Positions 20,643 through 24,178 of a stretch of 47,853 nucleotides of DNA are shown one piece after another. Within the stretch, counting starts at the first letter, position 1. Each line of letters starts with the position of its first letter. The DNA is from an uncultured archaeon. Its GTDB lineage: Archaea; Asgardarchaeota; Thorarchaeia; Thorarchaeales; Thorarchaeaceae. The stretch is from NCBI GenBank assembly GCA_964458565.1, contig CAYWJO010000026.1:1-47853 (forward strand). Reading direction: 5' to 3'. The notes beneath the pieces were generated by a model, which was not told the DNA's origin, made no database searches, and worked only from the letters and a program-made list of their open reading frames with translations. Both the position numbers and the translations under genes were made by a program.

Positions 20643-21923
20643 TCAGTTCCTGTGTAGATTTGGAGCGGCCAAGAAAGTAAGACCGTTCTTTGTCAGTTCT
20701 TTAGCAGTGATGTTTAGAGCCATATGTTTGTCGAGATAGTTCTGTAATAGATAATCCATATGGCCTGAGTCTATAATATCCTGTTTTGTTCTAAAGTAGT
20801 CCAAAATATCACTTGGGTGTGGGCGATCTTTATCAATCTGTGGAGGACCGCCTTCGTGTTTTGCACTTACATTCCTAACATGGTCCGCGAGTTCTACAAG
20901 TTCTGAAGTTCTGTCGTATGGTTGTCGTACAATATGCTTGTAGGTTTCAGTGATGTGATGTTCAATGCGTACAACATCCTCAAAACCGAAATCGTTACGA
21001 ACATAAGCTGCTAACTCAATGGTTTCATTATCCACACTATTGGAGAGGTTAAAGCCAATGAGTGGACTGGTCCCGTCATCTCTACTAAATAACTTGGCAG
21101 TAAGCAATGTCCATAGACAAGCAAATGGATTATCGTTACCCATATAGACGGAAATCTTGAATTCCATGTCGATACCAAGTTTGTGCATCATGTAGCCTAC
21201 TAATACACTTCCAGGATTGACATTCAACACTTGTTTCACGCCATAGGTAGTATAGTAGTGAAGATATTCATCTGCCCATTTTAATGGAAATCTGTTAGGC
21301 ATTCCTACTCCACCGAAATATCCAGTGATTGTATCTGGACCACCCAAATGCAAATTTACAGGAGCACCATCAGGTCCTGGATAGGTTCCTCTTGAATCAA
21401 GGGTTTCGACATAAGAGGCACCAAAAATCTGCATTGCTGCTGCAAAAGCGATAACATCGTTATCCTCTGACTGCTCGGCCATATTCCTAACACGGATGAA
21501 ACGTGCAGGCATTATCTCTTTGTTTTCTATGGATTGCTTTGCCTGCTCAATAATCCATGGGAAATACTGACAAGCACTGATTTCAAGAGTTACCGCGAAG
21601 CTTTCATCAAATGTCATGGAATCTGCTTTGTCACCAAGTATCTTCCGTCTATAATCAGAGATACTTATGAAAACATCATCGTCACGCTGTGTTTGAAGCC
21701 AGTTCAAATCGTCTACATAGGAGGATTTTTTCTCCTCCAGTTTAGCCATTAGATTTTCCGGTTTTCTTGCATCTCGGGCTTTCCGATTAATTTCGTCGAC
21801 TCCCCCATACTTTTCTATCACCTTCAATAAATCAGTAATGAGAGGGTTATCACCTCGAGTTATGAAGTCATTAATCGCATCCAGATTTTTCGAATCAATT
21901 CTCAGAATCTTTCTATCAACCAT
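20643..21923 (-). CDS. Conserved-looking hypothetical protein (426 aa)
   Basis: Long ORF with enzyme-like motifs (HLGGPDTITGYFGG, RIEHHITE, SAKHEGG); no function recognised. Confidence 0.8.
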   Translation of the reverse strand: MVDRKILRIDSKNLDAINDFITRGDNPLITDLLKVIEKYGGVDEINRKARDARKPENLMAKLEEKKSSYVDDLNWLQTQRDDDVFISISDYRRKILGDKADSMTFDESFAVTLEISACQYFPWIIEQAKQSIENKEIMPARFIRVRNMAEQSEDNDVIAFAAAMQIFGASYVETLDSRGTYPGPDGAPVNLHLGGPDTITGYFGGVGMPNRFPLKWADEYLHYYTTYGVKQVLNVNPGSVLVGYMMHKLGIDMEFKISVYMGNDNPFACLWTLLTAKLFSRDDGTSPLIGFNLSNSVDNETIELAAYVRNDFGFEDVVRIEHHITETYKHIVRQPYDRTSELVELADHVRNVSAKHEGGPPQIDKDRPHPSDILDYFRTKQDIIDSGHMDYLLQNYLDKHMALNITAKELTKNGLTFLAAPNLHRN

Positions 21924-22012: not shown

Positions 22013-22585
22013 TCATAGAGTCTGTTGAAGATAAAGTCTGATTGTGGGAGCTATCAATATTGCTACAATGCTACCTACGCTAACCTGAACCAGGTTCACC
22101 CAAATCATCTCTGCTAATGCGAATTCAAAGCCATAGAAGTATGTCTCAGATATCAGATAGCCATAGAGCATGATGATTGAACCCAAAATAAGACCGACAA
22201 TGTCAGATAGATTCAATCTGGTATTTCGTTTCGCATATCGAGCAAACCACCCTACGACAAAACCTTCACACCCCTTTACTATGAGTGTGATGGGAGCATA
22301 ATGAGCCCAACCCACAACAATATCGCCCATAGCTGATCCCACACCGCCTGCAATGAAGCCTCCAATAGGACCTAGAATTATTCCACTTATCATCACAAGA
22401 GTGTCCCCTAGATTGAAGTAACCAAAGGTAGAAGGAAAAGGTACAACGAGAACAACAGTTACAACTGTCGTTAGAGCTGTAAGCATGGCTACTAGAGCTA
22501 TGTATATCGTAGGGTTGCTTTTGATGAATGTATACGACATATCATGAGTTGCTACTAAATCCGACTGAGAATCTTGAATTGCCAT
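22013..22585 (-). CDS. ECF transporter S component (PdxU/HmpT-like family)
   Basis: P.P...GYFNLGD, GG.GSA..D...G..HYAP.T.IVKG.EG, N..Q motifs; about 5-6 TM helices. Confidence 0.85.
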   Translation of the reverse strand: MAIQDSQSDLVATHDMSYTFIKSNPTIYIALVAMLTALTTVVTVVLVVPFPSTFGYFNLGDTLVMISGIILGPIGGFIAGGVGSAMGDIVVGWAHYAPITLIVKGCEGFVVGWFARYAKRNTRLNLSDIVGLILGSIIMLYGYLISETYFYGFEFALAEMIWVNLVQVSVGSIVAILIAPTIRLYLQQTL

Positions 22586-22656
22586 GAGCTACTCCTCGAA
22601 ACAATTAGACTCTGAGAGTCTGGTTGATGGAGACCCCGGAAAAAGAATATATAACC

Positions 22657-22678
22657 TTGAGCCTATATATAGGTTCGA
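22657..22678. promoter_or_regulatory. Palindromic candidate operator in the divergent promoter
   Basis: TTGAGCCTATA|TATAGGTTCGA with a perfect 12-bp core CCTATATATAGG, lying between the TATA (AATATATAA, about 22646-22654) and the ATG at 22685. Confidence 0.6.
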
Positions 22679-22684
22679 TATATA

Positions 22685-24178
22685 ATGTCGTTCCTCTCAC
22701 ACATGCGCTGCTCGGTTTGTGATCAAGTATATGATGTGAAATCTTATAGAACCAGATGTGATCAATGCGGAGGATTCGTCCAAGCAGAATATGATTTAGA
22801 AAAAGCAAAAGAAAGCATCAACAGAAGGTCGCTTCAGCATAGAAGCCCTAGCATATGGAAATACCATGAGATCATTCCGATTCACAATCTTGATAGTGCG
22901 ATATCGCTCGGAGAAGGGGGAACATATCTCCACAAATGTGATGGTCTTGCTGAGAAAGTGGGTCTGAAAGAACTCTATCTGAAAGATGAAACTACAAATC
23001 CTACAGGTTCATTCATTGATAGAGGAACAGCAGTTGAAGTCACTGTGGCAAAGAACAGAAACCTGAATTCTGTCTGTTGTGCGTCGACAGGTAATCTTGC
23101 AGTTTCATTGGTTGCATATGCAGCAAGAGCACGCTTAATGAGCCAAGTATTCATGGGTCACAAAGGACGGGTTGATTCAGGAAAGCTCTACCAAATTCTA
23201 GCATATGCGGCACAGGTAGAGATTGTAAAGGATCAAGAAGAAGCAATATCAAGAGCGTATGAAGAAGGTAATCAGAGTCACCTTGTGATGTCCAGCAACG
23301 CGCATTTTCTTGAAGGAGTCAAGACAACCAGCATCGAAACCTGTGAGCAACTTGAATGGAACCCTCCAGATTGGATTATGACACCAATGGGAAATGGAGG
23401 CCATCTTGCTATGACTTGGAAAGGTCTCAAAGAATTAGTAACATTGGGTATCATTTCTGAACTTGATACCAGACTCTGTGGAGTCCAAGCAAAAGGATGC
23501 TCACCCATTGTAAATGCGTTTGAAAGAGATAGTGAAGAAATTATAATACCAAAACGAGTTTCTACGCTTGCATATGACATAGGAGTACAGAATCCATCTT
23601 GTGGACAAATGGCTCTTAATGCAATAAAGAACTCAAACGGTTTAGCAATAGCAGTGTCAGACAGGGATATCCTTGAGGCAGTGATGGACCTTGCTAGGTT
23701 GGAGGGTGTATTTGCTGAGCCGGCTTCTGCGACGACAATAGCAGCATTGAAGATACTTGTAAAGAATAACCAGATTGATAGAAATGATAGAGTGGTTTGT
23801 GTGATTACTGGAATGGGTTTGAAATACCCCGAAATAGCACGAGATATTGTGAGGGGTAAGGGCGCATTAGAGCAATATCTGAGTGATGTTGAAGGGCGTA
23901 GATTCACAACCCAATTGGGACAGACAAAAATACGAATACTGCAGGTTCTGTCAAGAAGCGAGTCATACGGTTATGCAATATGGAAATCACTTGAAACTGA
24001 TTTTGGATTACAGATTAAGATTCCAAGCATTTACCAACATATTTCAGAGCTCACAAATAGTGGACTGATAGTAAATACGAGATTGGAGGAAACATACAGA
24101 AGGAGAATAAGAAAGTTCTATGCACTTACAGAGAGAGGGCATTTCGCTCTTGACCAAATCGAGAAACTGAGCAAATAA
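22685..24178 (+). CDS. Threonine synthase-like (fold II PLP) protein, catalytic Lys->Ile, fused to a C-terminal PadR-type wHTH
   Basis: Zn-ribbon N-terminus; SLGEGGT, NPTGSFIDRG (canonical K replaced), ASTGN, PMGNGG, EPASA and TG.GLK motifs. C-terminal IL..L....YGY.I...L....SIY..I.EL...GLI....RKFY.LTERG. Confidence 0.88.
   Translation: MSFLSHMRCSVCDQVYDVKSYRTRCDQCGGFVQAEYDLEKAKESINRRSLQHRSPSIWKYHEIIPIHNLDSAISLGEGGTYLHKCDGLAEKVGLKELYLKDETTNPTGSFIDRGTAVEVTVAKNRNLNSVCCASTGNLAVSLVAYAARARLMSQVFMGHKGRVDSGKLYQILAYAAQVEIVKDQEEAISRAYEEGNQSHLVMSSNAHFLEGVKTTSIETCEQLEWNPPDWIMTPMGNGGHLAMTWKGLKELVTLGIISELDTRLCGVQAKGCSPIVNAFERDSEEIIIPKRVSTLAYDIGVQNPSCGQMALNAIKNSNGLAIAVSDRDILEAVMDLARLEGVFAEPASATTIAALKILVKNNQIDRNDRVVCVITGMGLKYPEIARDIVRGKGALEQYLSDVEGRRFTTQLGQTKIRILQVLSRSESYGYAIWKSLETDFGLQIKIPSIYQHISELTNSGLIVNTRLEETYRRRIRKFYALTERGHFALDQIEKLSK

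Follow-up and report, generated by a model that had tools for sequence, protein, structure and literature searches.

The window analysed here is a stretch of 47,853 nucleotides from a thorarchaeal genome that is 93% complete. Two of its genes diverge from a spacer of 99 bp (22586-22684). One of them encodes an ECF transporter S-component, and the other a protein of 497 amino acids in which a threonine synthase (ThrC) fold is fused to a PadR winged helix-turn-helix (wHTH). The features of the locus are collected in Table 1, where the operator entries are predictions without binding data.

Table 1. Features of the divergent regulator-ECF locus (window positions)
Feature	Position	Strand	Basis
PdxU/HmpT-type ECF S-component, probable B6 uptake subunit and regulated target	22013..22585	-	PF07155, 4HZU_S, pocket alignment
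Predicted operator dyad TATATAAC-CTTGAG-CCTATATA	22648..22669		top genome-wide site with both matrices; fixed distance in relatives
12-bp palindrome CCTATATATAGG	22662..22673		two back-to-back half-sites of 18-bp-periodic operator
ThrC-fold pseudoenzyme/PadR fusion gene, putative B6-responsive regulator	22685..24178	+	ORF, Pfam, NCBIfam, AlphaFold2, fold matches
N-terminal Zn-ribbon (C9, C12, C25, C28)	22709..22768	+	nearly invariant alignment columns
Fold-type II PLP domain, residues 73-376	22901..23812	+	PF00291, conservation table, alignment to 1UIM
Ile111 (ATT) replacing Schiff-base lysine	23015..23017	+	codon read, homologues, contigs from other runs
Phe208 replacing R160-equivalent arginine of T. 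thermophilus ThrC	23306..23308	+	alignment to 1UIM
PadR wHTH, residues 418-490	23936..24154	+	Pfam, homologue alignment

The PLP domain of the fusion protein is recognized as Pfam PALP with an E-value of 3.8e-60, and its Zn-ribbon is common to archaeal ThrC-like proteins. In the AlphaFold2 model (mean pLDDT 92.8) a low-confidence linker precedes the wHTH, and the closest fold matches of the model are threonine synthases (Foldseek E 4e-31). The identity to Zn-ribbon-type ThrC relatives is about 35-38%. The NCBIfam profile NF004170 (PRK05638) matches the full length of the protein, HTH included, with 270 bits, which is below its curated cut-off of 421 bits. At the C-terminus, PF03551 is matched with 50.6 bits (gathering score 27, E 1.9e-13) over profile positions 1-74 of 75; the PadR domain is complete, as the initial annotation had stated. 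Its YGY and YQH motifs (Y430, Y450, Q451, H452) are invariant among the best 120 homologues.

It had also been claimed that the Schiff-base lysine is replaced by isoleucine and that a read error is unlikely. Both statements hold: the ORF reads NPTGSFIDRG, and not one letter of the codon differs in contigs from runs X3 and X5. Since the best 120 homologues, among them many named Thorarchaeota and other Asgard proteins, all carry Ile (104) or Leu (16) and never Lys at this site, the substitution cannot be a matter of chance. The motifs ASTGN, PMGNGG and TGMGLK are retained, with the A of ASTGN replaced by G in 100 of the 120 homologues.

When Asgard genomes, all GTDB genomes and 1.84 billion representatives were searched, 240 fusion sequences were obtained, with members in Asgard lineages, Bathyarchaeia, Nitrososphaerota, Hadarchaeota, Methanomethylicota and Thermococci (Thermococcales). 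The lysine site is occupied by Ile, Leu, Val, Thr, Met, Asn, Ala, Phe or Ser in 159 of these, by Arg in 60 and by Lys in 20 (one unread), versus Lys in 100 of 106 unfused ThrC-like proteins. The loss of the lysine is thus conserved throughout the close homologues but not in the wider family, where 17 Lys-bearing fusions remain after redundancy removal. These belong to Promethearchaeia and some Bathyarchaeia (loci L071-L083, L099, L103, L108, L112, L116, L118). In a quick tree, built without the lysine column, the Ile/Leu subfamily that includes the window protein is separated from a sister Arg subfamily with a support of 99; the monophyly of all fusions was outside the scope of this tree. The Lys-bearing fusions are nested in two places within the Arg subfamily, which suggests reversion. 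The Thermococcales fusions correspond to PRK05638, labelled 'threonine synthase' (a Thermococcus member scores 805 bits; that of P. furiosus is AAL81530.1). As PRK05638 members read PTGSFRDR, they represent the Arg subfamily of the same fusion family, and their annotation as an enzyme looks wrong.

In several Asgard lineages, the Arg-type regulator genes adjoin GINS-MCM genes (L055, L064, L066, L069, L076-L079, L135). No operator was seen at these loci, and this neighbourhood is probably synteny only.

The divergent gene matches PF07155 (E 1.8e-34), a family that includes PdxU and PdxU2/HmpT. The sole significant match among solved structures is 4HZU chain S (E 3.3e-17), the HmpT/PdxU2 of Lactobacillus brevis, for which pyridoxamine was reported as substrate (PMC4860826). 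This bears out the proposed assignment to the PdxU/HmpT group. The HmpT pocket residues E41/H84/Q87/Y120/N140/Q143 align to D61/K104/E107/Y143/N164/Q167: the last three are identical, while the first three are substituted yet conserved in the alignment. Because three of the six positions differ, the exact vitamer could not be established. The linkage between regulator and transporter, foreseen by the initial annotation, was counted over 135 non-redundant loci. A divergent ECF S gene is present in 55 of the 74 Ile/Leu-type loci, and an adjacent downstream one in 41 of the 61 Arg/Lys-type loci. Neither an operator nor a B6 gene was found near the regulator at L127, L130, L135, L102, L112, L118 and L160.

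In the window's genome, incomplete as it is at 93%, pdxS and pdxT were not detected and no PdxK/ThiD-family kinase scored above the cut-off. A stand-alone EcfA-A'-T module is located on contig C1. Import of B6 by this organism would fit these observations. Among 57 genomes picked for the Ile/Leu regulator or its operator, pdxS occurs in only four, and it lies beside the regulator all four times; two of the four had entered the set with this adjacency already known.

Several further genes accompany the system. In many Bathyarchaeia and Nitrososphaerota loci, a ThiL/PurM-fold (AIR-synthase-like) gene adjoins the ECF S gene or an NCS1 permease gene (L183:4474-5508, C4:110598-111614 in the window's genome, and 18 other loci). 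As the window's genome encodes a 41% homologue and has no PdxK-family kinase above the cut-off, this protein is a candidate for the missing B6 kinase. No operator was found before the copy in the window's genome, and most of the genes retrieved when its relatives were sought are SelD-like. A CytX/NCS1-family permease gene lies behind the operator in a Nitrososphaeria genome (L183:3234-4487) and is a candidate second B6 importer. In genomes of Thor, Hermod and Bathyarchaeia, genes for GNAT acetyltransferases and for a radical-SAM protein are repeatedly found behind the operator or following the S gene (L206:5010-5564, L314:2090-4039, L010:2709-4280, L232, L249); the PdxR regulons of bacteria likewise contain RimI/RimL acetyltransferases. 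One Thorarchaeota genome (G134) contains two regulator-ECF modules (L313 on C14 and L289 on C68) and a third operator; a pyridoxamine-phosphate-oxidase-like gene (PF01243) is convergent to one of the two copies. In the window, the ECF S gene is followed by a gene for a conserved protein of 426 amino acids (20643-21923, - strand), also present in 18 related loci. It has no match in Pfam, NCBIfam or Atlas and seems to have its own promoter.

The spacer of the window contains a predicted operator. The conserved dyad of this operator has the core TATARG-N6-CYTATA. At ECF S or pdxST genes it either overlaps with the TATA box or comes immediately after it, and it persists there even where the regulator gene is distant. 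In the window, the left arm of the dyad is likely the TATA box of the regulator gene too, and the 12-bp palindrome likely overlaps the TATA box of the ECF gene. The upstream regions of relatives share ATATATAA-N7-CCTATATATAGG at a nearly fixed distance (22648-22673 in the window). With a subfamily matrix, the real site scores 44.1 in the whole genome and the next site 14.9; with the general matrix the values are 17.0 and 15.8, and the genome yielded no additional operator. The tandem pattern was found in 48 of the 57 genomes, mostly once, and its reversed control in six, although the pattern was derived from some of these same genomes. With one mismatch allowed, the 12-mer CCTATATATAGG by itself does not outnumber its reversed control, and only the tandem or dyad form was used for this reason. 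The initial annotation had called for a check on whether the palindrome is conserved. This holds for the dyad with its 12-bp element, but not for AGACTCT-G-AGAGTCT in the ECF leader (22607..22621), which among loci L001-L090 is present only at those of the window's own genome and was excluded from the system. A sigma-70 promoter scan is inapplicable to an archaeon.

When the DNA pattern alone was used for scanning, at least 118 stretches were retrieved. Among the matches listed, 45 of the 56 archaeal ones lie at a regulator or ECF S gene, and none of the 62 bacterial ones does. In cases where no ECF gene adjoins the regulator, the pattern precedes ECF S-A-A'-T operons or S genes that lie at a distance (L307-L309, L315, L244), as well as an NCS1 permease operon (L183). 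Arg/Lys members are accompanied by related dyads just downstream of the S-gene TATA box, for example TAGTATAG-TTAYAA-CTATACTA. A 22-bp matrix was trained only on S-gene promoters (consensus TATATAAG-TTTAAA-CTTATATA). It scores 8.8-16.8 on five distant Asgard pdxS promoters and 22.6 on an ECF-pdxS-pdxT operon; only 6 of 859 other upstream regions reach 10 or more, and two of the six belong to pdxS. The regulator's own upstream region reaches this score in 64 of 72 Ile/Leu loci versus 0 of 59 Arg/Lys loci, which limits autoregulation to the Ile/Leu subfamily.

In a 1.4-Mb draft genome (G202), the operator is present at the ECF S gene and no fusion was found. Contigs of other organisms from the same marsh samples match only the 33-bp operator segment 22642-22674 and diverge on both sides. 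In Nanoarchaeia, the pattern is found beside a PadR gene that stands alone, beside a divergent GNAT gene, or beside both (L187:6290-7133, L259:1614-1913, L273), which suggests a PadR-type operator that predates the fusion.

The Thermococcales allow the presence of the operator to be compared with that of the regulator. In 41 genomes, the regulator was found 27 times and pdxS 35 times; 30 pdxS loci were read, and the dyad was sought in the 140 bases upstream. AAG-N6-CTTGA precedes pdxS in all 18 genomes with the regulator and in none of the 12 without it (42 of 750 background windows contain it). The Fisher p of 1e-8 for this co-occurrence is an overstatement, because the PdxS tree needs only about three changes, two of them forced. 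The dyad had already been observed at one Thermococcus pdxS ahead of the comparison. The matrix alone separates genomes with and without the regulator with p 5e-4. A genome-wide pattern scan of Thermococcales gave chance-level matches only. P. furiosus possesses the regulator and two dyads directly after the BRE-TATA of pdxS, whereas T. kodakarensis has neither regulator nor operator, so that the claim is directly testable.

What the regulator might sense can be judged from its pocket. Relative to ThrC of T. thermophilus, the cofactor-contact positions N137, G236-N-G-G239, E345 and T375 are kept, the N137 column being N in 87% and D in 13%. R160, which we take to be the arginine that binds the phosphate of O-phosphohomoserine (the roles of the other residues are likewise assumed), has been replaced by Phe, and the equivalent of T88 is Leu. 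Such a pocket would fit B6 phosphate rather than O-phosphohomoserine, an inference from residues in the absence of ligand data. With the Schiff-base Lys and the substrate-phosphate Arg gone and the cofactor pocket kept, a non-covalently held B6 phosphate is the most likely ligand.

The signal might also be an external aldimine of PLP with an amino acid, or some other metabolite in the old active site, with the same B6 genes under control. Fold-II enzymes with a mutated lysine are able to retain external aldimines. In the Ile/Leu subfamily, K167 (K116 in T. thermophilus) and G136-N137 show conservation of 97-98% and 87%, and the GNAT and radical-SAM genes behind the operator could be read in the same direction. 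However, this subfamily varies in its carboxylate-binding loop (S134 50%, T135 44%), versus 97% S in unfused ThrC-like proteins, and the main targets are B6 supply genes. This possibility survives best among the alternatives, yet it remains improbable.

There is very little to recommend a sensor of threonine or O-phosphohomoserine that regulates amino-acid metabolism and is only secondarily linked to ECF genes. A phospho-amino acid had been left as a possible ligand by the initial annotation, and the ThrC ancestry is close enough for the protein to pass the TIGR00260 thrC cut-off (195.8 versus 167.1). In seven Bathyarchaeia loci, the upstream divergent neighbour of the regulator is even a Lys-bearing ThrC. 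In these loci, however, the dyad occurs only before the ECF S gene and is absent from the ThrC spacer. Furthermore, none of 205 fusions has the R160-equivalent Arg, which is present in 56 of 103 unfused ThrC-like proteins. Phospho-amino-acid sensing is unlikely because no fusion keeps this Arg and the threonine promoters lack the dyad. The operator tracks pdxS in Thermococcales, and no thrB was found above the cut-off in the window's genome (93% complete). As to the separate canonical thrC that the initial annotation had wanted checked, that genome encodes two Lys-bearing ThrC-like paralogues (C19, C4).

It is about as hard to defend the view that the conserved DNA merely consists of the overlapping TATA boxes of a divergent promoter, with another or no regulatory role for the fusion. 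The motif is indeed AT-rich, its left arm sits at the expected TATA position, and the lone 12-mer is not enriched. Against this, the motif persists where there is no divergent gene (L011, L040) and at distant ECF operons, and it vanishes upon regulator loss in Thermococcales. In addition, lineage-specific non-TATA variants, TCAAG-N6-CTTGA besides the Arg/Lys-type dyad given above, lie downstream of a separate TATA box, and stand-alone PadR genes are found at the same pattern.

A bifunctional trigger enzyme that is still catalytic, at least in its 17 Lys-bearing members, has a precedent in RbkR, an archaeal enzyme and regulator in one (PMC5397151), but it can hardly be upheld given the Ile of the window protein and the double nesting of the Lys members, without the substrate arginine, within the Arg clade. 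These Lys-bearing members are better accounted for by covalent PLP sensing, or by a reversion where the site tolerates it, than by a catalysis that was never lost. They do fulfil in part one of the conditions that the initial annotation had named as refuting, but the B6-regulator reading stands, since they nest twice, lack the substrate arginine and still lie by an ECF S gene and operator. Each of the four alternatives (aldimine or other metabolite, threonine, TATA boxes only, bifunctional enzyme) is much less likely than a B6 regulator.

The B6 regulator put forward by the initial annotation is supported by the observed loss of the lysine, the ECF linkage, the presence of Lys-bearing ThrC-like paralogues in the genome, the operator, pdxST as alternative target and the co-occurrence in Thermococcales. 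On this sequence anatomy, conservation, linkage and co-occurrence, it can be concluded with considerable confidence that the fusion protein acts as a one-component regulator that controls vitamin B6 supply at the level of transcription, with its DNA binding, ligand and repression all inferred. The following mechanism is proposed. The ThrC-derived domain would no longer be an enzyme, and a B6 phosphate, PLP or else PMP/PNP, would sit non-covalently in its pocket. An inferred dimer would use its PadR domains to bind the dyad TATARG-N6-CYTATA, often present as 18-bp repeats. Bound B6 phosphate would favour DNA binding. Provided that the protein is a regulator, such a co-repressor role of B6 is probable, though less firmly so, and it is inferred without binding or expression data. 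Given the position of the dyad, overlapping with the TATA box or coming right after it, the bound protein is proposed to block the initiation of the uptake gene and, in the window, of its own gene. Here the dyad overlaps the ECF S promoter as well as that of the regulator gene, and repression of B6 uptake and of the regulator is therefore most likely as long as B6 is abundant. Relatives able to synthesize B6 would have their pdxST controlled by this family. By inference, the regulator most likely switches off B6 uptake or synthesis genes in many archaea.

A similar design is seen in the bacterial MocR/PdxR regulators, where a wHTH is also fused to a sensor derived from a PLP enzyme and multi-box operators are used. 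In the PdxR regulon, the core is made up of pdxST together with pdxU, an ECF S gene, and RimI/RimL acetyltransferases are often included (PMC5320631); pdxST and ECF S genes are likewise the targets in the predicted regulon of the ThrC-PadR family. However, MocR proteins carry an N-terminal GntR wHTH and a fold-type I aminotransferase sensor, in contrast to the C-terminal PadR domain and the fold-type II ThrC domain, mostly without the Schiff-base lysine, of the fusions. PdxR is described as an activator of pdxST, whereas the operator position in the fusion family suggests repression. MocR regulators have been stated to be absent from Archaea, and a survey of 2023 gives only PdxR and PdxR2 as examples of known regulators.

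Archaeal vitamin regulators such as RbkR and ThiR, the latter with an enzyme-derived (ThiN) sensor and a wHTH, are similar to the fusion in architecture and predicted regulon, as they too combine a wHTH with a metabolic-enzyme domain as vitamin sensor. They differ in the vitamin, the sensor fold (riboflavin kinase or ThiN instead of PALP) and the HTH family. RbkR regulons comprise biosynthesis genes, uptake transporters and the regulator gene, with operators that vary by lineage; RbkR retains kinase activity and is released from DNA by FMN (PMC5397151). With Zn-ribbon-type ThrC (NF006050, TIGR00260; 6CGQ, 2ZSJ, 1UIM) the fusion shares the fold and the cofactor-pocket motifs. It lacks the Schiff-base Lys and the R160 equivalent, contains an additional PadR domain and has no thr-gene regulon. 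In its predicted regulation, the fusion works like PdxR and RbkR and is a member of neither.

No published description of the ThrC-PadR fusion family, and no archaeal B6 regulator, was found in the literature searched, which left out most subscription papers. On balance, the fusions may well constitute an unpublished and widespread family of archaeal B6 regulators and the first transcription factor sensor derived from a fold-type II PLP enzyme, without a Schiff base, whose regulon points to the ThiL/PurM-fold protein as candidate B6 kinase and to the NCS1 permease as candidate importer. If true, the archaeal gap left by MocR/PdxR would be filled from Asgard archaea to Thermococcales, and regulators would have been built independently from two unrelated PLP folds. 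The Lys-bearing fusions offer a natural comparison of covalent with non-covalent PLP sensing. The 'threonine synthase' label of PRK05638 would be corrected, false ThrC calls would leave archaeal metabolic reconstructions, and B6 specificity would be assigned to many orphan archaeal ECF S genes.
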